A stretch of 64,000 nt of DNA from Bacteroidaceae bacterium (GTDB taxonomy: Bacteria; Bacteroidota; Bacteroidia; Bacteroidales; Bacteroidaceae), in NCBI GenBank assembly GCA_045533955.1, contig JAZSIU010000011.1:20555-84554 (forward strand). Direction: 5' to 3'. A program made the translations under genes and the position numbers. This document shows, piece after piece, positions 4,302-35,867 of this stretch (positions within the stretch are counted from its first letter, which is position 1; the number at the start of each line of letters is the position of its first letter). The notes under the pieces are model-generated. The model did no database searches, had not been told where the DNA came from, and saw only the letters and a program-made list of their open reading frames with translations.

Positions 4302-4715
4302 ATGGAAAAGAAAATTAAACAATTGGCCTCGGTTGTCGATAATGAAAATCAGAGGCTTAAGGAGGCTCGTTACCGGCACGCGGCGGCAATGGCTGCCGAT
4401 GCGGTAACTAATTTGGCCTCGATGTATGCACGTAGCCGAGGCGGTCGTTACGCGCTGGGAACAAATTTTGCTTCGCAGAGTGGCCGTGAACTATCGTCTG
4501 CGCGCGAGAATGTGTCGGCTGCCCGACGTAATTATAACGCACTTATGACAGAGCTTGCCTTTAGAGAACTTATCAACAAAAGGGGCTCGTCGGTGCCGCA
4601 AGCCTCGAGGCCGACATTGCAGGCGGGAGAAACTTTTGCACGAAAAGGAGCCGAGGGCATTCTCTCGGCCGAAAAAAATATGTCTCGTTGGGGTAAAATG
4701 TTGAAACGCAATTAA
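4302..4715 (+). CDS. phage-like small basic protein, unknown function
   Basis: 137 aa, Ala/Arg-rich. It lies 11 nt after the previous ORF and 25 nt before the giant ORF. Confidence 0.5.
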   Translation: MEKKIKQLASVVDNENQRLKEARYRHAAAMAADAVTNLASMYARSRGGRYALGTNFASQSGRELSSARENVSAARRNYNALMTELAFRELINKRGSSVPQASRPTLQAGETFARKGAEGILSAEKNMSRWGKMLKRN

Positions 4716-4740
4716 GAATTAACAATAAAAAACTATTACT

Positions 4741-21480: not shown

Positions 21481-21740
21481 AATTTTAGATTTTATGTTTA
21501 TTGCAATATTGCAGTTTCTTATAGTCTGCATTAACTAAAATAAATAAAGCGCAGACTTTTGCCAACGCTCTCAGGCTCATCACAAGCCGAATATACAGTG
21601 GTTCAGTCTGCACCTATTATAATCCAATTGTATATTCTTTTGCTTTTTTTGTTTCGAGGAGGTTATTCAATAGCGATTGAGCAATTTTTTTTTTGGAAAA
21701 GTCTTACATTCGCTTCTCTCCCGACTGCCTTGCAAATATA

Positions 21741-21934
21741 GTGCAAGCGAATGAAATAATGCAAATTTATTTGCAATTATTTCGCAATGAGCGCCGCCTA
21801 TATTCAGCTTTTGCTAAATAAGTGCAAGCGAATGAAATAATGCAAATTTATTTGCAATTATTTCGCAATGAGCGCCGCCTATATTCAGCCTTTGCTAAAT
21901 AAGTGCAAACGAATGAAATAATGCAAATTTATTT
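21741..21934. repeat. 81-bp tandem repeat, about 2.4 copies, each with an internal imperfect palindrome
   Basis: Copies start at 21741, 21822 and 21903 and are near identical. Each carries GAAATAATGCAAATTTATTTGCAATTATTTC. Confidence 0.9.
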
Positions 21935-22023: not shown

Positions 22024-22716
22024 ATGGGCAAACAAAAATTCTGTTACAAATATCCGCATCCGTCGGTAGCAACCGATTGTGTAATTTTCGGCTTCGATGG
22101 GGCAGCCATCAAAATACTGCTTATCCAGCGAGGCGTTGAACCTTTTAAAGGAAAATGGGCATTCCCGGGTGGCTTTATGAGGATTGACGAGACGGCCCGC
22201 GAGTGTGCAAGGCGTGAATTAGAGGAAGAAACAGGGCTCAAAAATGCCACAGTCGAGCAGTTTTATACCTTCTCGGACGTGAATCGCGACCCACGCGAAC
22301 GGGTAATAACCATCGCTCACTATGCCCTTGTGCGCCTATCCGAAGTCAAGGGAGGCGACGATGCAGCCTCGGCCCGATGGTTCTCTATGAACGAGGTGCC
22401 GAGCCTTGCCTTCGACCACGAACGCATCCTGCGTATGGCCACGAGCCGCCTTAAAGAGCGCATCTGCTTCGAGCCCATCGGATTCGAGCTGCTGCCCGAG
22501 ATATTTACTATGACCGAGCTTCAAAATCTCTACGAAGCTATTCTTGAGATAAAGTTCGACCGTCGCAATTTCTATAATAAAATGCTCAAACTCGGTATCC
22601 TCGCCGAGGCCGAGCCCCGTCCCCTGAATGCATCGCGCCGCACACCGAGTAAGTATCGCTTCAATGCCGAAAAGTACGCCCGGCTGAAGCAAAAAGGATT
22701 CAGATTAGAGTTTTAA
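22024..22716 (+). CDS. NrtR-like regulator (Nudix hydrolase domain plus C-terminal winged-helix domain)
   Basis: 230 aa. The Nudix box is intact (GGFMRIDETARECARRELEEETGL fits G-x5-E-x7-REUxEExGU). An extra ~90-aa C-terminal domain matches the NrtR architecture. Confidence 0.7.
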   Translation: MGKQKFCYKYPHPSVATDCVIFGFDGAAIKILLIQRGVEPFKGKWAFPGGFMRIDETARECARRELEEETGLKNATVEQFYTFSDVNRDPRERVITIAHYALVRLSEVKGGDDAASARWFSMNEVPSLAFDHERILRMATSRLKERICFEPIGFELLPEIFTMTELQNLYEAILEIKFDRRNFYNKMLKLGILAEAEPRPLNASRRTPSKYRFNAEKYARLKQKGFRLEF

Positions 22717-23927: not shown

Positions 23928-24295
23928 TTACTTTTTAAAAGCCCTCTTTAGCAGCAGGCGTGCGGCGCAGATGCGGTTCTTGATGGTTGCCCAGTGGCAG
24001 GCCGAGCGCGAGCGTAATCTCGCAATATTTGTAGCTCCGGGCATACATTATCAGTGGGGTGGAAAAATCGGGTGGGAGCTTTGCGATAATGCGAGAAACA
24101 TCGTGAAATTCCGGCAGTACGTCGGCTGCGTCATCTGTGCTGTAATAATTATAATTGGTATTTTCTATTCTTACTCTTCACTCCGCAAAGAGAGACGTTC
24201 GTTAAGAAAGATATTTCGCATAATCCGCCGGGCCCAATGGTCGAATCTCGTTCCGATAGTAAAATATTTTCGCTTGATATAGGCCTTTGTTAGCC
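23928..24295 (-). pseudogene. decayed, N-terminally truncated sigma-70/ECF-type sigma factor gene
   Basis: The minus strand reads region-2-like FDHWARRIMRNIFLNER, then in-frame TAA (24171-24173) and TAG (24165-24167). Region-4-like LPPDFSTPLIMYARSYKYCEITLALGLPLG follows in another frame. A further frameshift precedes TIKNRICAARLLLKRAFKK-stop at 23928. Similarity stops at the island edge, about 24295. Confidence 0.6.
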
Positions 24296-24334
24296 ATAAT
24301 GTTAAAAACCCCTCTAGAATGGTCGGGAGGGTGT
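24296..24334. repeat. partial third copy of the 83-bp arm repeat (contains hairpin T1)
   Basis: ATAATGTTAAAAACCCCTCTAGAATGGTCGGGAGGGTGT aligns with the right half of 29382-29464 and 34408-34490. Confidence 0.7.
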
Positions 24335-24389
24335 GAAAATAAAGCAACCGCCTCAACATAATGAAACGTCGGAGCGGTTGTAAGTTGTT

Positions 24390-24726
24390 GACTATTTTCT
24401 GTTTGCCCTGCGGGCAACTCCCATTGAGTCAATCACTGTCGCATCGCGACCGTATCCCACGCTTTGCGTGACTATTACTCAGTGATTGCCTCTATCATTT
24501 TGCAAGCAAAATAATTGACTCATCACAATGTTGCCTTTAACTTTGTTGAAACGCTGCTGCACTCGTTGTAAAAACTCAAACAAGTTTAGTTTTAACTTGT
24601 TGGCAGGTGTTTTGGGCAATCGCACGTCGCGTGGCACTAGAACTCTCCCTCTGTTTATAGAGGGAGTACCCGAAGGGGGAGGGAGTATTTGTGCTACACG
24701 CGACTAACTGCTCAAAAGGTTGCTCA
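24390..24726 (-). other. structured non-coding module, copy I
   Basis: Shares TCCCATTGA (24419-24427), CAATCGC and the bulged helix GCGTGGCAC (24629-24637)/GTGCTACACGC (24691-24701) with copies II and III. Minus-strand terminator hairpins lie at its low-coordinate end. Confidence 0.4.
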
Positions 24727-24759
24727 GTAGTCGTAAAAAACAGCGTTTTTTACGACTAC
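24727..24759. repeat. att-core-like sequence in perfect-hairpin form
   Basis: GTAGTCGTAAAAAAC-AGC-GTTTTTTACGACTAC. The same left arm and loop region occur at 29749-29775. Confidence 0.6.
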
Positions 24760-24872
24760 TCGACTAGAATAGTTAAATTGGGGTTAAATATTTTAACTTT
24801 ATTATCAATGCTTTAACACTGAATTTTACCTTTTGAAACGGCAACTGGTGTCAAGAACAGGTGTCGAAAAAT
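24760..24872. repeat. AT-rich arm repeat, copy 1, with paired GGTGTC motifs
   Basis: TCGACTAGAATAGTTAAAT...TTTTAACTTTATTATCAATGCTTTAA aligns with 27849-27945 and 29784-29890. GGTGTC at 24847 and 24860. Confidence 0.75.
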
Positions 24873-24873
24873 T

Positions 24874-25944
24874 TTATATTATTGGTTCTATAGTGTATCC
24901 TTGTTCTTCTCCAAATTTAATTATTTTCCCTATATTGCCACTGCCAATTTCTCTTGTAAAAGCAAAAGTAATCCCATCAGCACTTACCATTAAGTTCTCT
25001 TTTTCTTCACGCCAACGCTTGTCTTTGGATTTATCAGTAGTAGTTTCTTTCCACTTTTGTATTTCAGAATACTTTTCAATACCAAATGGAATAGCATTTA
25101 CAATTTCATAATAAGTAAGTTGAGGGTTATTCCTTACAAACAATTGTACTATAGCTAACGCTAAATGCCCTTTGCCATAGTTCCCATTTCCATTTAGTCT
25201 ATATTGTGTGTAGTCCTTTGGCTTATTGTTACTTATTACAGGGGTTTGGGCTGGAGTGTATGTTTCTATATGTATTATGTTTGTGCAATTTTTACGTTTA
25301 ATGTTTATTTCTATTTCATTTGTGATATTCTCAATATCTTCAGCACAGTATCCCTCGCTTGTCAATTTTTGATTTAATAACTCAATAAATAATTGCTTAC
25401 CTTTTTCTGTTGTAAGTTCGTTGATAAACTCGTTAATCTCTTTTTGTTTTTCTTGTTTTGCGATTTGTTCAATGCAAAAATTAGTAAGCTGTTCGGCGTT
25501 GAAATTTTCTTGTTTGAAAAGTTCAATAAAGTTTTTACCATTATTAGAGTTTTCTACGAAGTCAATTTTCAATATACTTATAGGTTCTTTTCCAAACTCA
25601 TAATAGAACAATTCTATATGTTCTCCCATATATATACCAAATTGCACTGGTAGTAATTTCATATATGAGAAAAGTTGTACTATTTCCTCTTTATTTTGAA
25701 TGTGGTTAGGTTTTTTCATCTCAATAACGAACAATGGAGTATCGTCCTTGAAAAATACAATATCTGGATATACATAGTTTACTGTACTGCCGACTCTTAA
25801 TTGATATTGATTTTCTACACGCTCGCAGTGCCAACCTAATAAATAACGAAAGTGTGTATAGACAAGTTTTTGATATTCCTTTTCGGTTGCTTGCTTTGTT
25901 TTCTTATCTAATATGTCTTTACATATTGTGTTCCAAATATTCAT
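24874..25944 (-). CDS. PD-(D/E)xK nuclease-like protein (type I restriction HsdR N-terminal-like domain) with an uncharacterised C-terminal domain
   Basis: 356 aa. YPDIVFFKDDTPLFVIEMKK fits the D...E-x-K nuclease core. It occupies the cargo slot of decayed unit 1. Confidence 0.55.
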   Translation of the reverse strand: MNIWNTICKDILDKKTKQATEKEYQKLVYTHFRYLLGWHCERVENQYQLRVGSTVNYVYPDIVFFKDDTPLFVIEMKKPNHIQNKEEIVQLFSYMKLLPVQFGIYMGEHIELFYYEFGKEPISILKIDFVENSNNGKNFIELFKQENFNAEQLTNFCIEQIAKQEKQKEINEFINELTTEKGKQLFIELLNQKLTSEGYCAEDIENITNEIEINIKRKNCTNIIHIETYTPAQTPVISNNKPKDYTQYRLNGNGNYGKGHLALAIVQLFVRNNPQLTYYEIVNAIPFGIEKYSEIQKWKETTTDKSKDKRWREEKENLMVSADGITFAFTREIGSGNIGKIIKFGEEQGYTIEPII

Positions 25945-26067
25945 TGTGCTATGTTTTAATGCACAAAGTTATTTATTTATTTATATTCATTTAATCAAGT
26001 GATATTCATAAATACAGTTATTGCTCCCGACTTCGCCGGGAGCAATAACTAATAAACAAAATTCAAA

Positions 26068-26172
26068 TTAAATACAGAACTCTCTCTTTACTCTCTGCAC
26101 TGTACTAACGCTAACATTGGATAATTTTGCTGTGTTTCGTACAGAGTAACCACGCTTGAGCAGTGAGATTAA
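26068..26172 (-). pseudogene. 3' stub of a serine recombinase gene
   Basis: Encodes LISLLKRGYSVRNTAKLSNVSVSTVQRVKREFCI-stop. This is near identical to the C-terminus of the intact gene at 30761-31414. No upstream catalytic domain is present. Confidence 0.8.
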
Positions 26173-26217
26173 TAGTAAAAATGTTTAATTAAGTATGTCA
26201 ACAAAAAGTTTTTTTGC

Positions 26218-26225
26218 TATATTTG
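26218..26225 (+). promoter_or_regulatory. -7 promoter box TATATTTG upstream of the HipA-like operon
   Basis: TAnnTTTG match about 120 nt upstream of the ATG at 26345. Confidence 0.4.
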
Positions 26226-26344
26226 CGGTAAAATTGGGAATATAGTTTGCACTTGCATTGAAAAAATATTGAATGTTTTTTGATATTTCTCAGTTGTTAG
26301 TGTTATATATATGCTTCAATTATTATAATTCTACGTGTCAAAAT

Positions 26345-27136
26345 ATGCTCGATAGTATCAAGGATATTCAAAAACAATATGAAACAGGAGAAAACCCTGT
26401 TCTTGTAATGTGTAACGATAAGAATGAGTATGTGTGTAAGTATATGCGTTCTTTAAATCCTGCGTATAAGCTTGTGTGTGAATTCATTGGCTCTCATCTT
26501 GTTGAAAAATGGAATATCCGTTCTCCGAAAATGAATCTAGTGAAAATCAAGGCTGAGCATTGGAGTAATTTTTTATCGACAAATTGTATCCGTACTGCAC
26601 CAGCGTTGGGGTATATGATGCTGAATAGTGTTGTTGATATTACACAGACAACGTATAGTCATATACAACTGTCAAAGAAAGTTCTTGTACAATTGCTAAA
26701 GATTGCTCTTTTTGACTTTTGGGTAGCAAATGAAGACCGTACATATAATAATGCAAATTTGCTGTACGATGTAAAATGCGATGAACTTGTTTCTATTGAT
26801 TATGGCGGAATATTCAATACCTCGACATTTGAATACCCAATGTGTCAGTTGACAATGACAGATACGATATTGTATGCAGAAATATTCAAACAATTTATAA
26901 ATAAATTTTCAAAGAATGAAATTAGGACTGTTGCTGTAGGGTTGGAAGATTATTATAGAAAGTCGGTCGATAAGTGTAGAGGTGTGCTTGAAAGTATGAT
27001 TTCGGGAATACCATTAGAATGGAAAGTTGATAATGATATTATACTTAATAAACTGATGCAATTGTTTGATGAGTCGTGGGTGGCTGAAGTGTGGACAAAT
27101 TTTGTTGAATGCTTAAATGATAATATAAATGAATAA
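26345..27136 (+). CDS. HipA-like (HipA C-terminal fold) protein kinase
   Basis: The ATG at 26345 gives MLDSIKDIQ. The catalytic-loop-like WVANEDRTYNNANLLYD and metal-binding-like VSIDYGG resemble the HipA kinase core. Confidence 0.6.
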   Translation: MLDSIKDIQKQYETGENPVLVMCNDKNEYVCKYMRSLNPAYKLVCEFIGSHLVEKWNIRSPKMNLVKIKAEHWSNFLSTNCIRTAPALGYMMLNSVVDITQTTYSHIQLSKKVLVQLLKIALFDFWVANEDRTYNNANLLYDVKCDELVSIDYGGIFNTSTFEYPMCQLTMTDTILYAEIFKQFINKFSKNEIRTVAVGLEDYYRKSVDKCRGVLESMISGIPLEWKVDNDIILNKLMQLFDESWVAEVWTNFVECLNDNINE

Positions 27137-27476
27137 GTTACAATATAGCATAATTTTTGGTGAGATTAGACCTGAGATTTCTGAACGTTTAAGTCTTGGC
27201 GTCATTGTAGTAGATGGTGAAAATATTTCTGTCAAATACTCAAACAAGAAATTGCAGGTGTTAAAAAGTCTGTACTCTCAAAAAGAATATGAGTTTGTAG
27301 GGAGAGTTGTCAGAGGGTTGTCAAGAAACAATAAGATTCCTTCAGAAGGCATAGTTAATTATTTGTCAAGATACTCAAATAATTTGCTCTCAATATCAAA
27401 ATTACAGGGGATAGATTTGGAAGCAAATGAAAAGAGTAAACAATGGTTGTATGATACATATGTAAAGGTGGGTTAA
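27129..27476 (+). CDS. DUF3037-like small protein, translationally coupled to the kinase
   Basis: 115 aa with an 8-nt overlap with the kinase stop. The N-terminus (YSIIFGEIRPEISERLSLGVIVVDG) resembles DUF3037 as I recall it. There is no HTH. Confidence 0.45.
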   Translation: MNKLQYSIIFGEIRPEISERLSLGVIVVDGENISVKYSNKKLQVLKSLYSQKEYEFVGRVVRGLSRNNKIPSEGIVNYLSRYSNNLLSISKLQGIDLEANEKSKQWLYDTYVKVG

Positions 27477-27494
27477 AAACAACCCTTTGGAAAT

Positions 27495-27531
27495 AAAACA
27501 ATAAAGAAGCCGTAGGCTTCTTTATTGTTTT
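27495..27531. terminator. bidirectional hairpin terminator
   Basis: AAAACAATAAAGAAGCC-GTA-GGCTTCTTTATTGTTTT. Confidence 0.75.
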
Positions 27532-27540
27532 ATAGTTATC

Positions 27541-27799
27541 ATACTTGCGGGGTAGCGGACTAAGGTAAATACCCGAAGGGGAGGTGGCTTTATGCTACGT
27601 GCGACTATTACTCATTGAAGCCCTTGGTGGAAGTAATAAACAACAAGAGCCGAAAGGCTCTTGTTGTAGAATATTGTCATTGTCCCCTTTGAGGCCATCC
27701 CATTGAGACCATTGTTTTTGTCTTTGACAATCGCCACCCACGCGGTGCCACCTTACGGCACTTCGCGTGACCTATGGCTCTGCGATTAGCTCGGAAGGA
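27541..27799 (-). other. structured non-coding module, copy III
   Basis: TCCCATTGA at 27698-27706. Hairpin TTGTC/GACAA at 27718-27730. Bulged helix CGCGGTGCC (27741-27749)/GGCACTTCGCG (27757-27767). Confidence 0.4.
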
Positions 27800-27829
27800 G
27801 TAATAAAAAAATGGAACCTTGTGGTTCCA

Positions 27830-27848
27830 TTTTTTATTACTCCCACTC
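27830..27848. repeat. degenerate att-core copy
   Basis: TTTTTTATTACTCCCACTC is preceded by its own hairpin (27800-27840) and followed by the AT-rich arm. Confidence 0.6.
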
Positions 27849-27945
27849 GACTAGATATATTAAATTTTGAATAAATCTTTTAACTTTATTATCAATACTT
27901 TAATATTGCCATTTGCTCTAAGATGAGTTAAATGGTGTCGAAAGA
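27849..27945. repeat. AT-rich arm repeat, copy 2
   Basis: GACTAGATATATTAAATTTTGAATAAATCTTTTAACTTTATTATCAATACTTTAA. A single GGTGTC at 27934. Confidence 0.75.
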
Positions 27946-29232
27946 TTATTCTTGCTTTTCTATCTCTATGTTTTTGAATTTACCAAAAACGGGGTGATGT
28001 CGGTATTCCCAACGTGTTCCAGATGGTACATACAGAGTACATTCTTCAAAATTAACACTTTCATCTTTACCTAAGGCATAATTATCAATTTGAATATTGC
28101 CTAATTGTGTCCAATGTAGATGTATGCTTTTCAGTGCCGAGCAACCCTGAAAAGCTCTGTATCCAATTGCTGTTACGCTATTTGGAATGTTAATGTTTTG
28201 TAATGATGAACACCACCAAAAAGCTGATTCTCCTATTGTTGTTACACTGTTCGGAATTTCAATGCTTTTCAGTGCCGAGCAGAACTTAAAAGCGGAATCT
28301 CCTATTGTTGTTACACTGTTTGGGATGTCAATGCTTTGCAGTGCTGAGCAATTATAAAACGCTTCACTTCCTATTGTTGTAACACTATTAGGAATATCAA
28401 TGCTTTGCAGTGCTTCACAACCGCCAAAAGCACTGTATCCTATTGTTATTACGCTATTAGGTATATCAATGCTTTGCAGTGCCATACACTCCCAAAAAGC
28501 ACTATTTCCTATTGTTGTTACACTGTTTGGAATGTTAATGCTTTGTAGTGATGAACAACCATAAAAAGCACTATCTTCTATTGTTGTTACGCTGTTTGGG
28601 ATGTCAATGCTTTGTAGTGATGAGCAACCATAAAAAGCGTGGTTTCCTATTGTTGTTACACTGTTTGGGATGTCGATGCTTTGTAGTGATGAGCAACCCC
28701 AAAAAGCACCATTTCCTATTGTTGTTACGCTATTTGGGATGTCAATGCTTTGCAGTGCTGAGCAACCACCAAAAGCACTATTTCCTATTGTTGTTACACT
28801 GTTTGGAATCTGAATACTTTGCAGTGCCGAGCAACCCCCAAAAGCGTATTCTCCAATTGTTGTTACGCTGTTTGGGATGTCAATGCTTTGCAGTGCCGAG
28901 CAACTCCAAAAAGCACTGTATCCTATTGTTGTTACGCTGTTTGGAATCTGAATACTTTGCAGTGCCGAGCAACTCCAAAAAGCACTGTATCCTATTGTTG
29001 TTACACTATTAGGAATCTCAATGCTTTGCAATTGCCAGCAACTATTAAAAGCATTTTTTCCTATTGTTGTTACGCTGTTAGGTATATCAATACTTTTCAA
29101 TTGCCAGCAACTATTAAAAGCATCGTGTCTAATAGTTGTTACCCCCTTAGGTATTGTAATATGAGTAATGGGTTGATTGTTAACGCTTATTACAGCTTTT
29201 TTGTCTTCACTTAATATAAGAATATTATCCAT
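27946..29232 (-). CDS. BspA-type leucine-rich-repeat protein without a signal peptide
   Basis: About 14 tandem 23-aa repeats ([24 protein letters not shown]). The ATG at 29232 lies 25 nt downstream of a -7 box. The N-terminus [12 protein letters not shown] is not a signal peptide. Confidence 0.8.
28146..29166. repeat. 69-bp periodic coding repeats inside the LRR gene
   Basis: Many units share long identical nucleotide runs (e.g. CCTATTGTTGTTACACTGTTTGG...AATGCTTTGCAGTGC). Confidence 0.85.
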
Positions 29233-29256
29233 TGCTATACTATAAATTGCTTTTTG

Positions 29257-29264
29257 CAAATATA
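29257..29264 (-). promoter_or_regulatory. -7 promoter box TATATTTG for the LRR gene
   Basis: TAnnTTTG on the minus strand, 25 nt upstream of the ATG at 29232. Confidence 0.45.
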
Positions 29265-29321
29265 GTTTTTTAATTTTAAGAATAGATTATAGTTGTAAAT
29301 AACATATATAAAAAATCTAAA

Positions 29322-29384
29322 TTAAATACAAAACTCTCTTTTCACTCTTTGAACTGTGCTAACGCTAACATTGGATAATTTTGC
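29322..29384 (-). pseudogene. second 3' stub of a serine recombinase gene
   Basis: Encodes AKLSNVSVSTVQRVKREFCI-stop and is fused directly to the 83-bp arm repeat. Confidence 0.75.
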
Positions 29385-29464
29385 TACTGGTGTCAAAAAG
29401 TGGTATAAATTCATATTCGTTAACTGTAATGTTAAAATACCCTCCAGAATGGTCTGGAGGGTGT
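29382..29464. repeat. 83-bp arm repeat, left copy (paired GGTGTC plus hairpin T1)
   Basis: Aligns with 34408-34490 with 5 mismatches. The last 38 bp are identical. Confidence 0.85.
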
Positions 29465-29519
29465 GAAAATAAAGCAACCGCCTCAACATAATGAAATGTT
29501 GAAGCGGTTGTAAGTTGTT

Positions 29520-29748
29520 TATTATTAGAGTTTTTTATTGACAAGGCTCGTTATTCGCAACCCGCACGGCGTGATTTATATCCACGCTTCGTGCGACCTT
29601 TTGCTACTCGCCTTGTCGATAATTTTTGCCTTTTTTGAGGCAAAAATTATTCCCATTGACCAACCTTTTGTTGCCTTTGGCAATCGCACCCCGCGTGGCA
29701 CTATCTTCGTCAGTGCTACACGCGACTAACTGCTCAAAAGGTTGCTCT
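29520..29748 (-). other. structured non-coding module, copy II
   Basis: Bulged helices GCACGGCGTG (29564-29573)/CACGCTTCGTGC (29583-29594) and GCGTGGCAC (29693-29701)/GTGCTACACGC (29713-29723). TCCCATTGA at 29651-29659. Hairpin TTGCC/GGCAA at 29671-29683. Confidence 0.4.
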
Positions 29749-29755
29749 GTAGTCG

Positions 29756-29783
29756 TAAAAAACGCTGTTTTTTACTCCCACTC
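29756..29783. repeat. att-type direct repeat, distal copy
   Basis: TAAAAAACGCTGTTTTTTACTCCCACTC, identical to 34544-34571. Confidence 0.85.
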
Positions 29784-29890
29784 GACTAGATATGTTAAAT
29801 TTTGATTGAATGTTTTAACTTTATTATCAATACTTTAACTTTTGTTTTTGCCTTTTGGAACTGCAACTGGTGTCAAAAACTGGTGTCGAA
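29784..29890. repeat. AT-rich arm repeat, copy 3, with paired GGTGTC motifs
   Basis: GACTAGATATGTTAAATTTTGATTGAATGTTTTAACTTTATTATCAATACTTTAA. GGTGTC at 29869 and 29882. Confidence 0.75.
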
Positions 29891-29904
29891 AGTCTTGTGA
29901 AAAA

Positions 29905-30654
29905 TTATGGTACTACGATAAAATTTAAAAGACTGTATTCAAGTGAAAGCATTGATGCAGATGTTGTTGAAATGATGTCGCCGTCTTGGAAACGCTTATT
30001 TACGTCTACACAAATAAATAAACCACCTTCTGGTAATTCAATAACGTCTAAAACTTTGCTTTTATGTATTATTGCTTGGTTTAAACTTTCTAAACTTTTA
30101 TCCTTAATCTCTATTTCTTTGATATTTTTAAAATCTATAATATCATTGAAATATATAGAGATTTCTTCTAAAAAGCGCTTTTGAATTTCTTTCGATTTAA
30201 AGTCAACAGCAGATGCAATAAATTCATCATAATCTGCGCCATAGTATATAGGACCTGTCATTAAAGCATTAATACTTTCTTCATTAATGCTTATTCTTGC
30301 CCAATCAGAATTATACTTGCGAGTTATATTATCAAGCTTTATTGCTTTTTCCAATATGTAATGTGTATCTTTGGCTAATGAAATGTTTTCAGGACATAAT
30401 TCTATAATAAGTTTCTCAAAACTTAATACTGTTTGTTCTTCTTTTTCATAGCGATATTTTAATGCCTTTGCTTTTGCTATTGCAGTTATTGTTTCTAGTC
30501 TTTCTTCAAATAAATAGTGATTAGGTCGAGAAGTGGCTCCCCATTGCGCTGTTATTTCACTGTTTACCTTAATTCCTGAATATTGAAAGATTGGATAATT
30601 TTTTCTAAGGTTCTTTAGCATTTCACTAAATAGTCTATTTGCATTAGTATCCAC
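29905..30654 (-). CDS. hypothetical protein in the cargo slot of the intact element
   Basis: 249-aa ORF with a GTG start at 30654; an ATG alternative gives MLKNLRK 11 codons in. No recognisable motif. Very AT-rich. Confidence 0.5.
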   Translation of the reverse strand: MDTNANRLFSEMLKNLRKNYPIFQYSGIKVNSEITAQWGATSRPNHYLFEERLETITAIAKAKALKYRYEKEEQTVLSFEKLIIELCPENISLAKDTHYILEKAIKLDNITRKYNSDWARISINEESINALMTGPIYYGADYDEFIASAVDFKSKEIQKRFLEEISIYFNDIIDFKNIKEIEIKDKSLESLNQAIIHKSKVLDVIELPEGGLFICVDVNKRFQDGDIISTTSASMLSLEYSLLNFIVVP

Positions 30655-30760
30655 CGAAATATATTGTATATAAATTATAAATTACAAATTTACTCTAATT
30701 TTAGGTTTTAAACAAGTGTTTTCAATGGAAATTGATAGAGGTTTATATATGAAATTCAAA

Positions 30761-31414
30761 TTACAAACAAAATTCTCTTTTCACTCTTTGAACAGTGCTA
30801 ACACTAACATTGGATAGTTTCGCTGTGTTTCGTACAGAGTAACCTCGTTTGAGCTGTGAAATAACCTCTTTGTATTCCTCTTTCTTGCGCTCTGTGGTCT
30901 TACAGGAACCTTTCTTGCGCCCTAACTTGCCACCATTGGCAATATAACTATTTCTGCCCGAATTGAGTCTGTAAACGATGTTAGAACGTTCGATATTCGC
31001 CATTTCGGCAAGAACTGTTACCATTATGCTGGCGATTGGGTTCGCCTCTCCTGTGGCGTTCAGGGTGTAAATGCCAAGGTTTTGGATATATACTGAAACA
31101 CCCGCCTCGTGCAACATTTCGAGCGATTTTAACACTTGCAAGGTGGAACGACCTAAACGACTCAACTCCGACAGTAGAATATAGTTGACCTTGTTTGCTA
31201 TACAGTAGTTAATGCACTCCATTAGAACTGTTCTGTTCTCGTTCTTGGTTGCTCCGCTTATGTGTTCTTCGTAAGTGCCAATGATATTAAAGTCGTTGCT
31301 GTTGGCAAAGCGTGTCAAGTCCTCAATCTGTCTTTGTGTATTCTGTCTGTCGTTAGTAGATGAAACTCTGGCGTAAATAACTGCTGTACTCATATTGCTA
31401 TCTCTTTGGTTCAC
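30761..31414 (-). CDS. serine recombinase (resolvase/invertase type)
   Basis: 217 aa. The catalytic-Ser motif is AVIYARVSS. It has a resolvase core and a C-terminal HTH (GYSVRNTAKLSNVSVSTVQRV). Confidence 0.9.
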   Translation of the reverse strand: MNQRDSNMSTAVIYARVSSTNDRQNTQRQIEDLTRFANSNDFNIIGTYEEHISGATKNENRTVLMECINYCIANKVNYILLSELSRLGRSTLQVLKSLEMLHEAGVSVYIQNLGIYTLNATGEANPIASIMVTVLAEMANIERSNIVYRLNSGRNSYIANGGKLGRKKGSCKTTERKKEEYKEVISQLKRGYSVRNTAKLSNVSVSTVQRVKREFCL

Positions 31415-31478: not shown

Positions 31479-31548
31479 TTGAATATATAAAAACATGTTT
31501 TTTTTGATTGAATACAGATTTTTTTGAATACAATTAAATATTGAATAC
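31479..31548. repeat. iteron-like direct repeats TTGAATA(C/T) x4
   Basis: Copies at 31479, 31508, 31524 and 31541, in the spacer between the rep-like stop and the recombinase start. Confidence 0.6.
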
Positions 31549-31735
31549 GGTATAAAGAGGATATATATAAGATTGGATTTATTTTCAACTATTTACGAAA
31601 AATATGTTTTTTTCTTCATTACCACCCTTGTAAGAAAATGTAAGATTTTATATTACAATAAGCGGTTTTATTATCAATATGTTATGTCTATATATATGTA
31701 ATGGCAAGGTAGTTTACTAATACCTTGCCACGCAA

Positions 31736-32623
31736 TTACAACAGTTCTAAAATGCTGTAACTCTTTCTGCCGTTCTTGTCTTGGAAACGCAAAACTCTGT
31801 CGAGGAATGTTATAAAGAAAAACAAAAGAGAGTCCTTGTCTAAAAATATCTTTGGGCTGTATGTTATCTGCTCTCTTGTGAAAAAGTCTTTGAGAACATC
31901 GCTGTTTATTCGTACCTCTAACCTATAAAGTTTCTTGGGGTTGTCGTTGTTGTCGAGAATGTATTGTTTGTGGCTCTTGCTCTCAATTTCTCGTTTCTTG
32001 TTGTAAGCGTTGAGAGTGATGTTTTTGTTCTTCTGTGCCACTAATACGCTATACTCCTTAATTCTATAGAGGTTGCCAACTCCTATATAAAGAATGTCCT
32101 CAATCAGTTGTTTGCGGTCTGTGATTTTAGTGCCGTTCACTATTGGAGTGTACTCCTTGTTTCGTATCAGTTGGATAAGTTTCTTGGGATAATTGCAACT
32201 GCCGTCAATGGCGATGTCCCAATGAGTGAAATTGTTGAACACAAGTCCTAATGTATCTTCGATGTACTCAAGGTGCAACAATCTGCTATGTTGCCAATCG
32301 TGTTTTAGGTAGAATTGCTTGTTCTCTACTTGCAACCAAACAAACGACTGCATAGCCTCATCGGTGTCTGCTTTCAACCCCCATTGTAGCGTGCCGAAGA
32401 CTTGCTCTGTGAACTCTTGGAAAGTGTTGTCTTCGTAGTCAAGATAGACTATTTCATAAATGTAGTTATAGTGAGTGCCTTGCACTTGCCTTAATCTGTA
32501 CCCCCATTCGGGGTGTTCAAATTCTTCTGTTGGGTTATCTCTTAATGTGTTTAGATAACTGTTCTCTGCCAATGTGTAGCAGATTTTCAACTTGTCGATA
32601 GTTGGTGTAAATTCATTTTTCAT
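31736..32623 (-). CDS. Rep_trans-like rolling-circle replication initiator
   Basis: 295 aa. HWDIAIDG and LNAYNKKREIE...LYRLEVRIN resemble the conserved D-x-A-x-D and Y-x-K...R-x-E motifs of the Rep_trans (pT181 RepC / phage replication protein) family. Confidence 0.55.
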   Translation of the reverse strand: MKNEFTPTIDKLKICYTLAENSYLNTLRDNPTEEFEHPEWGYRLRQVQGTHYNYIYEIVYLDYEDNTFQEFTEQVFGTLQWGLKADTDEAMQSFVWLQVENKQFYLKHDWQHSRLLHLEYIEDTLGLVFNNFTHWDIAIDGSCNYPKKLIQLIRNKEYTPIVNGTKITDRKQLIEDILYIGVGNLYRIKEYSVLVAQKNKNITLNAYNKKREIESKSHKQYILDNNDNPKKLYRLEVRINSDVLKDFFTREQITYSPKIFLDKDSLLFFFITFLDRVLRFQDKNGRKSYSILELL

Positions 32624-32814
32624 TCCTTTTTTAAATTATTACTCTTATTAGTTCTCTCTTGCCATACAGTTCTCATCGCCTCTGCTATGGCTTGTTTGTG
32701 CTGTGGGGTTTTGCGATACCTTTTCATCGCTTGGCTAATTCTCTTGCGTGTAACAGCACTCTTTTTTCTTCCACGCAGTGTCAATGAAATTTTGTGTTTT
32801 GTCTGTTCATTCAT
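32620..32814 (-). CDS. small basic DNA-binding protein with NUMOD3-like motifs (candidate excisionase / recombination directionality factor)
   Basis: 64 aa. TKHKISLTLRGRKKS and TRKRISQAMKRY resemble NUMOD3 repeats. There is a 4-nt overlap with the rep-like start. Confidence 0.5.
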   Translation of the reverse strand: MNEQTKHKISLTLRGRKKSAVTRKRISQAMKRYRKTPQHKQAIAEAMRTVWQERTNKSNNLKKE

Positions 32815-32941: not shown

Positions 32942-34270
32942 CTATCTTGCAAACGCTTGGGCTACTATCCTTGCGTGTTCCTCTTTGTTTACCTTGATAT
33001 ATTTGAGAAAATTATTCTCTGTGGTGTGTCCCGTGATTGCCATAATACTAATGCTTGGAACTCCTTTGAGATACATATTTGTGGCAAATGAGCGTCTTGC
33101 AGTATGGTTCATAACAAACTCAAACTTTGCTCCGTCCTTGATGATTGTGTTTCCACCTTTTACACGGGATAGGGTAGTCCTTTCGTTGATGTTGGCAAGT
33201 TTAGCACACAGACGGATATGTTTCAAGCAATGTGTCTTGTCCACGCTTTTGGGGAAACTCTCTCCGTATTTCGTGAATATCTCTTTAACCATTGGGTGCA
33301 TAGGAATAACAACAGTTGCGTTTGTCTTGTGAGTGTGAACAACCATAGTATCGTTGCTCCTTATCTCAACATTAGATAGGTCTTGCCAATCTCCAAAGCG
33401 TAGTCCAGTCCAACAAGCAACAATGAACAAGTCCCGTGTTTCTTCAATTCTTGCTTTATCGCCAACAACTGCTTTTACGGCCTCATCTTCAAAATTGATA
33501 GCATACAATCGTTTAATCTCTTCCTCTGTTAGATAGATGTTATCTACATCTTGGCACTTGGTAGTGTAAGAGTGATAGCATTTGTTTATCTCAATGCCGT
33601 TCAGTTCTGCCTCTTTCAACCATACTTTGATAATGCTGAATGTGCTTGCTATCGTGTTTGCAGCGTATTCTCGTTCTAATAACCAAGCAGTAAAACGTTC
33701 TTCAAGGCGATTGTCAAACAGTTGCCAAGTGAGTGCAAGGCGATTGTCGTTGCAGAACTCTTGTAAGCGTTTCAAGGCATTGTAATGGTTGTAGATTGTA
33801 CCGCTGACTATCTTGCGTTGTGTTGTTCTGTTTACCATTTGCTTTTTGCGCTCAATGTAGTCTTGTATGAATGTCAAAGGTTTCTTCTTGATGTCTGTGT
33901 CCTTGCCATTGATTTTGCATTTGAAGTAGTTTTCAAAGTTCTCTTTCGTGTGTTCAATCTCGCCCTCTGTAATTGCTTTTGCATAGTCGTTGCAGTAAGA
34001 TAGTATCTGTTTCAGTGCTTTGTTTACCTCTTTATTATAGCGTAACTGAACTGCTCCAATGGCAGGGTCTTCTGTTGCTCTTTCGCCAACTTGGGTTCTT
34101 GTGGTCTTTAACCAATACTGCGGTTCTATTGTCAGTTTGGTAAATACTCTTGCTCGTTCTTTGTTGATTGTTGTTGTCAACCAAATTTGAGATTTGTTGC
34201 CTACTGTTTTGAGATTGAAATTGACTCTCATAGTAAATTTGTGGTTTATATAAAATTCGTTTTCTACCAT
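32942..34270 (-). CDS. tyrosine site-specific integrase
   Basis: 442 aa (alternative ATG at 34231). Catalytic residue contexts are WTGLRFGD, HTARRSFAT and GHTTENNFLKY. The N-terminal arm-binding/SAM-like region is typical of Bacteroidetes integrases. Confidence 0.9.
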   Translation of the reverse strand: MVENEFYINHKFTMRVNFNLKTVGNKSQIWLTTTINKERARVFTKLTIEPQYWLKTTRTQVGERATEDPAIGAVQLRYNKEVNKALKQILSYCNDYAKAITEGEIEHTKENFENYFKCKINGKDTDIKKKPLTFIQDYIERKKQMVNRTTQRKIVSGTIYNHYNALKRLQEFCNDNRLALTWQLFDNRLEERFTAWLLEREYAANTIASTFSIIKVWLKEAELNGIEINKCYHSYTTKCQDVDNIYLTEEEIKRLYAINFEDEAVKAVVGDKARIEETRDLFIVACWTGLRFGDWQDLSNVEIRSNDTMVVHTHKTNATVVIPMHPMVKEIFTKYGESFPKSVDKTHCLKHIRLCAKLANINERTTLSRVKGGNTIIKDGAKFEFVMNHTARRSFATNMYLKGVPSISIMAITGHTTENNFLKYIKVNKEEHARIVAQAFAR

Positions 34271-34407: not shown

Positions 34408-34490
34408 TGCTACTGGTGTCAAAAAGTGGTGTCAATTTACATTCGTTAACTATAATGTTAAAATACCCTCCAGAATGGTCTGGAGGGTGT
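34408..34490. repeat. 83-bp arm repeat, right copy (paired GGTGTC at 34415 and 34428 plus hairpin T1)
   Basis: Aligns with 29382-29464. Confidence 0.85.
34458..34487 (-). terminator. minus-strand hairpin terminator T1
   Basis: CCCTCCAGA/TCTGGAGGG stem, followed on the minus strand by TATTTT. Confidence 0.6.
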
Positions 34491-34543: not shown

Positions 34544-34571
34544 TAAAAAACGCTGTTTTTTACTCCCACTC
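34544..34571. repeat. att-type direct repeat overlapping the stop codon and last three codons of the guaA-like gene
   Basis: Identical to 29756-29783. TTACTCCCACTC is the reverse complement of GAG TGG GAG TAA. Confidence 0.85.
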
Positions 34572-35867
34572 AATTGTGGCGCTGGGCTTAGGCGACATAT
34601 CGTAGCAGACGCGGTTGACGGTCTTTACCTCGGCAAGGATGCGGTCGGTGATTTTCATAAGGATTGCCCAATCTATCTGCTCTATTGTGGCTGTCATTGC
34701 ATCTACCGTGTTGACGGCGCGGATAATTACGGGCCAGTCGTACGAGCGGGCATTGTCGCGCACGCCCACTGACTTAAAATCGGGAACTATGGTAAAGTAT
34801 TGCCATACTTTTTTGTCGAGGCCGGCTTTTGCAAACTCTTCGCGCAGGATGGCGTCCGACTCGCGCACTGCTTCTAAGCGGTCGCGGGTAATTGCGCCGA
34901 GGCAGCGTACGCCGAGGCCGGGGCCGGGGAAGGGCTGACGATAGACCATCTCGTAGGGGAGGCCAAGCTCGAGGCCGCAGGCGCGTACCTCGTCTTTAAA
35001 GAGCTGACGGATGGGCTCGACAAGTTCGAATTGCATATCTTCGGGCAGGCCGCCTACGTTGTGGTGCGATTTTACCATTTTGGCTGTCTTTGTACCGCTC
35101 TCGACAATGTCGGGGTAGATGGTGCCCTGACCGAGGAATTCTATTCCGTCGAGCTTGCGTGCCTCCTCTTCGAATACGCGGATAAACTCGCCACCGATTA
35201 TCTTGCGTTTCTGCTCGGGGTCAGCGACGCCCTCGAGCTTGCCGAGGAAGCGGTCGGTTGCATCGACATATACTAGGTTGGCGCACAGCTGGTTGCGGAA
35301 CACCTCGATAACGGCTTCCGACTCGCCCTTGCGCATCAGTCCGTGGTTCACGTGTACGCATACAAGGTTGTTGCCGATGGCCTTGAGCAGAAGGGCTGCA
35401 ACCACCGAGCTATCGACACCGCCCGAGAGTGCTAGAAGCACTTTGCGGTTGCCAACCTGACGACGGATGAGTTCTACCTGGTCGTTGACAAAGTTTGTCA
35501 TATTCCAATTGGCCTCGGCTCCGCAGGTGTCGAATACAAATGATTTTACGGCCTCTTTTATGGCCTCTTCGTCATTTGTAAACTGCGCGAGTTTGACGTC
35601 GCACAGTGCCTTGTCGTGGCCTGCTGCCATAATGGGCAGGCCGGCATCATAAATCTCGGGGTTTACGTCAATGGCAACGCCGTCAATTACGTTATTGGGG
35701 CCGCCGTTGATGATGATACCTTTTACTCCGGGAAGCGCTTTTAACTCCTGTGCTGTAATGTCGTGGGGGTAAATCTCGCTATATACTCCCAATGCACGAA
35801 TTGCGCGGGCAAGCACGGTGTTCTCGTGGCTGCCAAGGTCGAGGATGACAATCATATCCTGTTTCAT
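34560..35867 (-). CDS. guaA: GMP synthase-like protein (ATP pyrophosphatase and dimerisation domains intact; short, apparently degenerate N-terminal amidotransferase domain)
   Basis: 435 aa with the P-loop SGGVDSSV, KSHHNVGGLP, and the C-terminal ...IEWE typical of GuaA. The N-terminal ~115 aa lack the G-x-C-x-G nucleophile context (GLPIMAAGHD instead). Confidence 0.8.
   Translation of the reverse strand: MKQDMIVILDLGSHENTVLARAIRALGVYSEIYPHDITAQELKALPGVKGIIINGGPNNVIDGVAIDVNPEIYDAGLPIMAAGHDKALCDVKLAQFTNDEEAIKEAVKSFVFDTCGAEANWNMTNFVNDQVELIRRQVGNRKVLLALSGGVDSSVVAALLLKAIGNNLVCVHVNHGLMRKGESEAVIEVFRNQLCANLVYVDATDRFLGKLEGVADPEQKRKIIGGEFIRVFEEEARKLDGIEFLGQGTIYPDIVESGTKTAKMVKSHHNVGGLPEDMQFELVEPIRQLFKDEVRACGLELGLPYEMVYRQPFPGPGLGVRCLGAITRDRLEAVRESDAILREEFAKAGLDKKVWQYFTIVPDFKSVGVRDNARSYDWPVIIRAVNTVDAMTATIEQIDWAILMKITDRILAEVKTVNRVCYDMSPKPSATIEWE

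Follow-up and report, generated by a model that had tools for sequence, protein, structure and literature searches.

The 64,000-nt stretch of a Bacteroidaceae bacterium genome analyzed here and referred to as the window (assembly GCA_045533955.1, contig JAZSIU010000011.1, positions 20,555 to 84,554 of the forward strand) contains, at 24.3-34.6 kb, a segment that very probably represents an accretion array at the 3' end of the GMP synthase gene guaA, composed of one intact integrative element and remnants that resemble cis-mobilizable elements (CIMEs). The GC content of this segment is 30-40%, compared with 45-55% in the flanks. Along the direction of guaA transcription, guaA is followed by genes for a tyrosine integrase, a 64-aa ORF product, a 295-aa protein (hereafter Rep), a 217-aa serine recombinase and a 249-aa passenger protein (cargo 3), and further outward by an LRR_5 protein (cargo 2), a HipA_2 kinase and a 115-aa ORF, both on the plus strand, and an HSDR_N protein (cargo 1). 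We divide the array, from guaA outward, into units A to D; its most plausible makeup is an integrative and probably mobilizable element (unit A) with its decayed copies. A first-pass annotation of the same DNA had described three units, each with a different gene in one fixed position; we find in addition that these units are tandem insertions at the guaA 3' end and that unit C also holds the HipA_2 kinase and the 115-aa ORF. Loci of other genomes are designated by L numbers.

Probable tandem insertions at the 3' end of guaA

The integration target, the attachment (att) cores and the arms of the units are located as follows.

34560-35867, minus strand: guaA (GMP synthase), the integration target, a 435-aa ORF whose homologues, 88-92% identical, adjoin the integrase in L001-L017
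34560-34573, minus strand: att core at the true guaA end, TTACTCCCACTCAA, corresponding to ...IEWE and the stop codon
34408-34490, no strand assigned: integrase-proximal arm of unit A, 94% identical to 29382-29464 (repeat family D6), containing a terminator-like hairpin and a pair of GGTGTCAA repeats (34415-34422 and 34428-34435)
29772-29891, no strand assigned: distal arm of unit A, with core 29772-29785, box TTTATTATCAATA at 29820-29832 and arm repeats at 29869-29876 and 29882-29889
27837-27943, no strand assigned: distal arm of unit B, with perfect core 27837-27850, box 27885-27897 and arm repeat 27934-27941
24750-24867, no strand assigned: distal arm of unit C, with core 24750-24763 (11/14), box 24798-24810 and arm repeats at 24847-24854 and 24860-24867

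The last codons of guaA together with the stop codon (TCGAGTGGGAGTAA in gene orientation) recur without mismatch (14/14) at 29772-29785 and 27837-27850, and a third internal copy, at 24750-24763, is degenerate (11/14). Furthermore, a 28-nt block at 34544-34571 is 100% identical to 29756-29783 (repeat family D10). The guaA homologues of the other loci match GATase and GMP_synt_C in Pfam. Pairs of GGTGTCRA repeats, 13 nt apart, lie inside both ends of unit A (29869/29882 and 34415/34428), and single or paired copies are present at the ends of units B and C; these repeats are putative arm-type sites of the integrase. The box TTTATTATCAATA is kept about 45 nt from the core in divergent elements. 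An 18-nt motif, TTTATTATCAATACTTTA, was considered as a second recombination site and rejected: a fourth copy is present at 31667, but it is confined to the closest subgroup.

Unit A (about 29.79-34.56 kb) spans from core to core, and we therefore read it as an intact 4.8-kb element carrying cargo 3. It possesses its own site-specific recombinase and flanking att repeats, as expected of an integrative and mobilizable element (IME). The perfect cores 27837-27850 and 29772-29785 enclose unit B, which has arm repeats at either end but neither the integrase nor Rep. Unit C, between the cores 24750-24763 (11/14) and 27837-27850, has likewise lost the integration and transfer genes; both thus have the makeup of CIMEs.

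The scenario that best explains this anatomy is one in which the tyrosine integrase of elements of about 4.8 kb would act on a core with the same sequence as the final guaA codons, and the integrating element would replace the guaA end and terminator. Each new copy would insert at the guaA-proximal core and push the older copies outward, and these would subsequently lose the integrase, Rep and most of the recombinase by deletion, with the cores, the arm sites and the passenger gene remaining in place. The single accessory position, bounded by the recombinase terminator on one side and the distal arm sites on the other, would hold a moron-like module with its own Bacteroidetes-type promoter box, the passengers being mixed accessory genes that would benefit the host or the element. 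Rep and an adjacent hairpin would mediate either rolling-circle replication of the excised circle or nicking for conjugative mobilization, and the small serine recombinase, with its upstream iterons, would resolve multimers.

The order of parts is the same in all units, as would also be the case if one element had been duplicated locally and its genes had then been replaced, with no independent integrations. We consider such an origin exceedingly improbable, given that the identity of the arms between units is just 72-88%, against 100% for the newest cores, that the cargos are unrelated, that a guaA-end copy stands at each internal boundary, as sequential site-specific integration predicts, and that counterparts of C and of A are found apart from each other in other genomes.

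The backbone of the intact element

Unit A encodes the following components between guaA and its cargo.

32942-34270, minus strand: tyrosine integrase, 442 aa (Pfam Phage_integrase, 1.1e-9; Phage_int_SAM_5, 1.3e-9; weak Arm-DNA-bind_5; phrog_1 integrase, 2.4e-21)
32620-32814, minus strand: 64-aa ORF, overlapped by 4 nt by the start of Rep, conserved in 38/47 loci
31736-32623, minus strand: Rep, 295 aa, predicted rolling-circle initiator or relaxase of the Rep_trans fold (AlphaFold2 model and Foldseek)
31703-31729, minus strand: hairpin directly 3' of the Rep stop codon, with the invariant loop GGTATTAGTAAA, conserved across subgroups in which Rep is only 50% identical
31508-31548, minus strand: three GTATTCAA iterons 5' of the recombinase gene, a candidate res site or operator
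30761-31414, minus strand: small serine recombinase of the resolvase/invertase type, 217 aa (Pfam Resolvase, 5.1e-30, and HTH_7)

The AlphaFold2 (AF2) model of Rep, obtained from a 22-sequence alignment (pLDDT 85.5, pTM 0.84), was compared with known structures using Foldseek. The top six matches in the PDB were RepDE (4CWC/4CWE) and RepSTK1 (4CIJ), with E ~1e-7 and probability 1.0, followed by TATA-binding proteins, and the best named matches in BFVD were inovirus Rep proteins. Four residues are invariant in the family, Y179, Y207, K209 and E212 (Y207-N-K209-K-R-E212), and G181 is nearly so; the pattern Y179..Y207-x-K-x-x-E212, compared by eye, fits the Y-x-G...Y-x-K-x-x-E half of the RepDE active-site motif (active-site residues and Rep_trans motif as given in PMC4797284). 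The T and R positions of the motif T-x-Y-x-G...R-x-Y-x-K-x-x-E are not conserved in the Rep family, and a sequence search of the PDB with the Rep profile returned nothing significant. With its fold and the conserved hairpin next to its gene, Rep could be either a MOBT-like relaxase or a replication initiator only; proteins of the Rep_trans/MOBT group can serve both replication and conjugative nicking (PMC5704250). Unit A, with five ORFs in 4.8 kb, has no room for the genes of a type IV secretion system.

Three stem pairs of the hairpin covary, and 90% of the cells are paired, compared with 27-47% in slid controls. Because the loop is invariant, the stem covaries and the nick site of pT181-type plasmids lies within a hairpin loop of this kind (PMC4797284), we propose the hairpin at 31703-31729 as a candidate nick site, that is, a double-strand origin or an origin of transfer (oriT).

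In every subgroup, two to four copies of the GTATTCAA iterons lie no more than about 140 nt upstream of the start of the recombinase, suggesting that the serine recombinase, whose match to the Mpi family of NCBIfam is below the cutoff of that model, may be a resolvase acting at a site beside its own gene. The possibility that it moves or flips the cargo was rejected: no consistent direct or inverted repeat pair links the region upstream of the recombinase with the cargo position in 12 elements. A 15-nt inverted repeat (30115/31460) was likewise set aside as a chance occurrence because it has no counterpart elsewhere and one of its arms lies inside cargo 3. The product of the 64-aa ORF has no significant family match in Pfam; from its position, it is possibly an excision or regulatory factor.

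Probable decay of the older units

The remnants distal to unit A comprise the following features.

29306-29464, no strand assigned: unit B junction, a recombinase 3' stub (29306-29384) fused directly to an integrase-proximal arm (29382-29464)
26017-26190, no strand assigned: terminator hairpin (26017-26049) and, from 26052 to about 26190, the recombinase 3' stub of unit C
26273-27476, plus strand: HipA_2-type kinase (287 aa; Pfam HipA_2, 2.3e-20) and an overlapping 115-aa ORF, in place of the lost backbone of unit C
24286-24733, no strand assigned: unit D, a lone integrase-proximal arm with a spacer remnant, 88% identical to 29416-29526 (repeat family D7)

In unit B, what is left of the recombinase gene is its final 64-79 nt, joined to the arm 29382-29464; the AGCA tetranucleotide at the junction is attributable to either parent sequence. 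From this arrangement, the junction is best read as the product of a deletion that took out the integrase and the 64-aa ORF as well as Rep and the larger part of the recombinase. The HipA_2 gene pair of unit C, beside which lies a terminator hairpin (27493-27533), was not found in any other retrieved locus. The single element of L002 likewise has a remnant corresponding to unit D on its distal side, where 4497-4732 is 89% identical to 24286-24521 of the window. The window and L002 have a further feature in common, three tandem 81-nt repeats (21730-21934, 5' of the ORF 22024-22716; L002 4786-4986).

The deletion junctions of the window lie at recombinase nt 591 and 553. At five other loci (L001 6233, L005 11178, L007 10970, L048 7683 and L144 7726), an arm-type site, ...GACACCAGTAGCA, is fused to recombinase nt 432-436, which corresponds to codon ~146 and the start of the helix-turn-helix (HTH) domain. 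Five different cargos follow these junctions, the stub frame is open in 4/5, the filler nucleotides at the junction differ, and the stubs derive from two recombinase subgroups. This junction could mark either a lineage of propagating non-autonomous mini-elements or a deletion hot spot.

Extended to the window, the former possibility would mean that the decayed units are themselves mini-elements of 1.2-1.7 kb (arm, recombinase HTH stub, one cargo, arm and core) that propagate when mobilized in trans by the integrase of full-length relatives, so that the array would combine an autonomous element with its partners or parasites. Units B and C indeed retain cores and arm sites, the left deletion end always falls directly after an arm-type site, the right end is the same in the five loci despite their differing cargos, with the stub frame mostly open, and cis-mobilization of CIMEs has been documented in streptococci (PMC5704250). 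However, the junctions in the window lie elsewhere, the filler differs among the loci and the L005 stub comes from the other recombinase subgroup, no mini-element was seen at two different genomic sites, and the distal core of unit C is degenerate (11/14). We therefore regard mobilization of the decayed units in trans as unlikely, and sequential insertion followed by deletion as the better account of units B and C.

The element family in other genomes

Homologues of Rep form >180 clusters, all unnamed, in Bacteroides, Phocaeicola, Alistipes and relatives, and a scan with one genome per species yielded 47 loci. The order guaA-integrase-64-aa ORF-Rep-serine recombinase-variable segment-arm motif-core is fixed in L001-L017 and L066-L072, the hosts being Bacteroidaceae, Alloprevotella, Parabacteroides and Rikenellaceae, and the guaA-end target is in use at >20 loci. 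In L010, L014, L066 and L067, the element lies at the 3' end of a guaA paralogue (47-50% identical) located upstream of the true guaA and sharing the same end codons.

Tandem remnants with recombinase stubs are also present in L001, L005, L007 and L144, and the stubs of L001, L005 and L007 are followed by other genes. A gene 90% identical to that of cargo 1 occupies the slot of an intact element in L002, and cargo 1-like genes (57-96% identical) lie directly after guaA with no backbone in L056, L059, L061 and L144, flanked by cores where these are still recognizable. In L048-51, cargo 3-like genes (79% identical) are located behind a stub directly after guaA and are followed by a Fic gene. A homologue of cargo 2 is present in the equivalent remnant of L007 (56% identity by tblastn, 65% in the codon alignment), and others are found near related recombinases. 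Thus, each cargo type occurs in both intact and decayed elements, as a cycle of integration, accretion and decay predicts.

Some guaA islands consist of remnants only (L144 7581-12077 and L048 9188-10234); in L048, a Fic protein follows the cargo 3 homologue, and L144 contains, in this order, a stub with a DUF4405 protein, 166-aa and 64-aa ORFs, cargo 1 (96% identical) and an NTP_transf_2 protein. In L006 (9820-10666), an inverted recombinase 3' end follows the terminator hairpin and the arm repeats are on the opposite strand, so that a neighboring remnant appears to have been inverted around the palindromic hairpin.

Close relatives of the recombinase in metagenomes were considered as additional slots; most of them (~70% identical; L076-L142) are located in a different backbone next to DUF3871 and were therefore excluded from the census of cargos described below. 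These loci (for example, L123 4692-8729 and L088 6934-7183) are on human-gut contigs, next to a DUF3871 protein and with neither integrase nor Rep. A gap of ~500 nt 3' of the recombinase holds inverted repeats of 13-17 nt, ~217 nt apart, and the enclosed segment could be an invertible promoter; the downstream genes vary and are surface-protein-like (DUF4595, DUF4988, lipocalin-like, LRR_5).

A single slot with unrelated passengers

In units A, B and C, one minus-strand gene lies 3' of the serine recombinase gene or of a fragment of its 3' end.

24874-25944, minus strand: cargo 1, 356 aa, PD-(D/E)xK nuclease (HSDR_N) with an uncharacterised C-terminal domain; TAACTTTG box at 25964-25971
27946-29232, minus strand: cargo 2, 428 aa (437 aa if started at 29259), LRR_5 protein of the BspA type with 23-aa repeats (Pfam LRR_5, 1.6e-127); TATATTTG box at 29257-29264
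29905-30654, minus strand: cargo 3, 249-aa ORFan; TAAATTTG promoter box at 30685-30692

That three unrelated genes occupy equivalent positions between the recombinase or its stub and an arm, as claimed in the first-pass annotation, is confirmed by the ORF coordinates, by the repeats on both sides and by BLASTP, which detected no similarity among the three proteins at E<1e-5. On the 5' side, copies of the recombinase 3' end (repeat family D2; 26052-26169, 29306-29423 and 30745-30862) are 69-83% identical, this end being complete in unit A, with 79 nt left of it in unit B and ~139 nt left in unit C, and on the 3' side, the conserved arm (repeat family D4; 24746-24852, 27833-27939 and 29768-29874) is 72-81% identical. 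A motif a few nt beyond each gene had also been noted; exact copies of GGTGTCGAAA at 24860, 27934 and 29882 are indeed 4, 2 and 13 nt from the stop codons of cargos 1, 2 and 3, respectively. With up to one mismatch, this motif has 12 matches in the window compared with 3.6 expected, a count reached in 0/100 shuffles. A scan of 24-35 kb against Rfam for structured RNA in the arms found nothing up to an E-value of 0.1.

The three genes share one position because the family has a single position for accessory genes. Across related elements, 19 non-redundant slots hold 26 protein families, and the slot of one element is empty; the slot is therefore truly variable, and the earlier proposal of a conserved backbone with a swappable position holds, the same gene not recurring throughout the family. 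Most members of the family lack the cargos, which therefore do not serve the maintenance of the element. In the empty slot (L074, 1006-1210), the 204 nt lying between the stop codon of the recombinase and the core contain just the terminator and the arm repeats. The terminator hairpin of the recombinase (GTTATTGCTCCCGG...CCGGGAGCAATAAC) is kept ahead of different cargos, with homology ending right after it and returning at the arm repeats.

Each cargo start in the window is preceded, 27-38 nt upstream, by a TAnnTTTG box, which we take to be the Bacteroidetes -7 promoter element. With a promoter box of its own, each cargo behaves like a moron, that is, a self-promoted accessory gene of phages, and forms a self-contained transcription unit. 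The cargos are under purifying selection (dN/dS of 0.23, 0.39 and 0.22 for cargos 1, 2 and 3, respectively, compared with 0.06-0.08 for the recombinase and Rep), also where one of the compared partners lies in a decayed unit.

The cargos of other genomes include two outer-membrane beta-barrels, a GNAT protein, a cupin, a SHOCT protein, a DUF2335 membrane protein, a 284-aa HNH protein, a 1424-aa protein with BACON, LRR and peptidase M64 domains, and many ORFans. A protein of ~100 aa with a weak BT_3044-like_C match recurs as the second gene of two-gene cargos with differing first genes (160, 335 and 212 aa); it was found at L007 10412-10720 and 12173-12487, L009 10581-10883 and L067 6907-7209, and such cargos may be paired modules.

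Superficially, the locus resembles an integron-like or rAID-like array, in which the integrase or the serine recombinase would capture single-gene cassettes and the flanks would be cassette recombination sites. As in the rAID-1 arrays of Bacteroidales, which are widespread in the same order, co-oriented accessory genes of low GC content (30-39%) follow a tyrosine recombinase and are separated by a repeated intergenic sequence; in addition, the variable segment is sharply bounded and the junction at recombinase codon ~146 is common to five other loci. However, the repeats in the window, unlike those of rAID-1, are att sites and gene fragments derived from whole-element insertions: copies of the guaA end, integrase arm sites and recombinase fragments of varied length (64-225 nt). 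Moreover, unlike the cassettes of integrons, which are promoterless and flanked by attC-type sites, the cargos have promoter boxes of their own; cargo 1 is found inside a complete element in L002; and the upstream region of the recombinase is not linked to the slot by any consistent repeat in 12 elements. The rAID-1 genes encode immunity-type proteins such as SUKH, behind a XerD-like recombinase >44% identical to BF9343_RS08045, whereas Pfam detected no SUKH, Imm or other immunity domain among the cargos scanned; membership in rAID-1 was considered and set aside, and the rAID papers searched mention neither guaA nor a serine recombinase. Capture of single-gene cassettes thus appears very unlikely, and insertion of whole elements remains our preferred interpretation.

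The passenger proteins and the question of defense

Cargo 1 had been described as a protein with a PD-(D/E)xK core of the HsdR-N-like type, and Pfam supports this assignment, with HSDR_N/HSDR_N_2 matched by residues 33-108. The PD...ExK residues D61, E75 and K77 are invariant in the family, as are Q90, S93 and Y94. The SF2 helicase motor domains of a type I HsdR are lacking (Pfam). Residues 234-353 match positions 129-242 of the 245 of the PADLOC profile PDC-S57 (E 1.3e-26), a partial rather than full-length match; PDC-S57 belongs to a set of 145 untested candidates that were detected within BREX, DISARM or type I restriction-modification loci. In an exhaustive HMMER search, no more than 192 representative proteins contained the C-terminal domain (~120 residues), which nearly always stands at the C-terminal end of the protein. 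In 98 of these proteins, its N-terminal partners, mostly restriction-type nucleases, are HSDR_N (18), NucS_C, PDDEXK_3/4/9, Mrr_cat, GmrSD_C, the NgoFVII DNA-binding domain, HEPN_Swt1, AAA_5, GIY-YIG-type domains (T5orf172, MUG113) and a kinase. Sequence searches of the PDB with cargo 1 and with the profile of its C-terminal domain returned nothing significant. On the basis of this domain architecture, cargo 1 is most likely a restriction-like enzyme with a PD-(D/E)xK effector and a C-terminal sensor or DNA binder.

For cargo 2, the ATG at 29232 (428 aa) is the preferred start because the TAnnTTTG box at 29257-29264 overlaps the alternative TTG start. The gene contains 14 overlapping DNA repeat copies with a spacing of 69 nt (repeat family D1). 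Inspection of the N-terminus revealed no signal-peptide-like hydrophobic stretch, in line with the original description of a BspA-type LRR protein with no signal peptide.

Cargo 3, in which no recognizable motif had been seen, has no match in Pfam, PHROGs, NCBIfam or the PDB, and its clusters of homologues number just 14 among 5.8 billion. Its AF2 model, built from 12 sequences, is of low quality (pLDDT 56), and the weak IF1/OB-like Foldseek matches of its C-terminal 80 residues (E 0.02-0.07) are a lead rather than a result. Distant homologues of cargo 3 adjoin a HigB/HTH pair.

The first-pass annotation had interpreted the slot as a defense or conflict hotspot in a satellite-like element. In its stronger form, this reading holds that the slot is a dedicated defense or counter-defense hotspot of a phage-satellite-like element, with the cargos being single-gene anti-phage or anti-MGE (mobile genetic element) systems. 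The slot is hypervariable and rich in ORFans, the cargos outlast the decay of the backbone under purifying selection, and Fic and nucleotidyltransferase genes are present within guaA islands. Furthermore, at E<1e-5, PADLOC matches cargo 1 (PDC-S57), the HipA_2 kinase (PDC-M66A, 7.8e-10) and the HNH cargo of another genome, which matches type IV restriction models, and in other proteins the cargo 1 C-terminal domain is joined to Mrr, GmrSD, NgoFVII, HEPN, PD-(D/E)xK and GIY-YIG-type domains. Against this, these three are the only matches among 25 cargo proteins, the PDC families being candidates themselves, and several cargos are surface or membrane proteins or ordinary enzymes. On present annotation, the slot is therefore a general accessory-gene position with a defense-like minority. 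Thus, the defense label plausibly applies to cargo 1 only; the HipA_2 kinase and the HNH cargo also have defense-type matches, whereas the remaining cargos are ORFans or other proteins and cargos 2 and 3 show no tie to defense.

The satellite part of the proposal fared worse. The Rep fold is common to inovirus Rep proteins, and filamentous-phage satellites with just replication and integration genes do exist, RS1 of CTXphi being an example. However, PHROGs matched only integrase and DNA invertase among the window proteins, with no other phage-type genes; relatives of Rep were sought in IMG/VR, phage records and plasmid records and none were found; the hallmark genes of P4-like, PICI (phage-inducible chromosomal island), cfPICI and PLE satellites (primase/helicase, genes for packaging or capsid redirection, helper-responsive regulators) are absent; and, at 4.8 kb, the element is smaller than the described P4-like, PICI and PLE satellites. 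Taken together, a dedicated defense hotspot of a phage satellite seems rather unlikely.

The separate possibilities can also be combined into a joint reading, in which the slot would be a dedicated conflict-gene exchange platform in Bacteroidales, cargo 1 a new single-chain restriction-like enzyme with an undescribed sensor domain, cargos 2 and 3 new defense or anti-MGE factors, and the decayed units trans-mobilized mini-elements that deposit such genes beside guaA. As a whole, we hold this combination to be distinctly unlikely.

Several considerations weigh against the interpretation that we favor, an integrative and mobilizable element with an accretion array of decayed copies. No excised circle, empty sister-strain site or transfer was observed here, and no conjugative helper was identified. 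The Pfam matches of the Rep family are below the gathering score, Phage_CRI (E 0.038, 3/22 members) ahead of Rep_trans (PF02486 clan; 0.047, 1/22), and the resolvase role is founded solely on the family of the recombinase and the upstream iterons. The HipA-like pair in unit C breaks the rule of one slot per element, and the recurrent junction at codon ~146 in five other loci is unexplained by random decay. Finally, most cargos have no recognizable function, such that the label of mixed accessory genes partly reflects ignorance. Taken as a whole, the anatomy, the variability of the slot across the family, the Rep fold, the covariation of the hairpin and the purifying selection are shown by the analysis, whereas excision, transfer, the part played by the recombinase and any activity in defense are deduced. 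Three window proteins looked up for annotation of the rest of the window had no record.

Comparison with known systems

IMEs that integrate at the 3' end of guaA, arrays that accrete in tandem and decay to CIMEs, and IMEs with Rep_trans proteins have all been described (PMC5704250), and a 2012 paper cited in PMC6764341 regards GMP synthase genes as a hotspot at which genomic islands integrate. The array resembles the IME and CIME arrays of streptococci (the tRNA-Lys, rpsI and rpmE islands) in the tyrosine integrase acting at the 3' end of a housekeeping gene, the direct att repeats, the tandem accretion, the older copies that have lost integration and transfer genes while retaining att sites, and the small cargo load (PMC5704250). 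It differs from them in that the host belongs to the phylum Bacteroidota, the remnants each keep one passenger gene with predicted expression, and mobilization is a prediction. From the four Bacteroidetes IMEs whose mobilization is covered in PMC5704250 (NBU1, NBU2, Tn4555 and Tn4399), all with MobP relaxases, the element is set apart by its Rep_trans-fold protein.

A tyrosine integrase and insertion at the guaA 3' end are shared with GIsul2, ATE-1 and the IncP island, for which PMC5704250 lists guaA-end integration, together with RepA/RepC for GIsul2 and RepA for the IncP island. These islands, unlike the guaA elements described here, are found in Proteobacteria and Actinobacteria and have other replication genes. 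They are also much larger (GIsul2 is about 15 kb) and carry resistance genes.

Rep shares with the Rep_trans initiators and MOBT relaxases (RepC/RepD of pT181 and RepSTK1; RelSt3/NicK of ICESt3, Tn916 and ICEBs1) the fold, the Y-x-G...Y-x-K-x-x-E pattern and the adjacent hairpin with a conserved loop. Unlike in the known Rep_trans proteins, its sequence similarity is below the Pfam threshold, N205 stands in place of the arginine that precedes the catalytic tyrosine by two residues, an insertion separates the two halves of the motif, and the activity is a predicted one. In the literature searched, we found no description of a family of Bacteroidales elements that targets guaA and is built around a Rep_trans-type protein.

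The exchange of unrelated, self-promoted accessory genes at one position also recalls phage morons and the hotspots of P4-like satellites and PICIs, in which, as Rousset et al. reportedly described in 2022, unrelated accessory genes swap within a conserved backbone. Unlike P4-like satellites and PICIs, the guaA elements have no capsid-redirection, packaging or primase genes and no link to a phage, and their cargos are only partly defense-like.

To conclude, the guaA end, integrase, Rep, resolvase, single slot, arm and core provide a compact anchor in Bacteroidales, and the slot draws on a pool of genes that is very diverse and for the most part unknown. Surveying the slot would be a cheap way to harvest candidate accessory and defense genes from gut Bacteroidales, including those with the C-terminal domain of cargo 1. 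The arrays show stepwise how passenger genes outlive the elements that deliver them and become fixed beside a housekeeping gene, and, if the joint reading as a conflict-gene exchange platform were true, they would represent an accretion route to accessory-gene arrays comparable to the rAID arrays. Furthermore, these elements may be the first integrative elements of Bacteroidota built around a Rep_trans-type protein, which bears on how they move.

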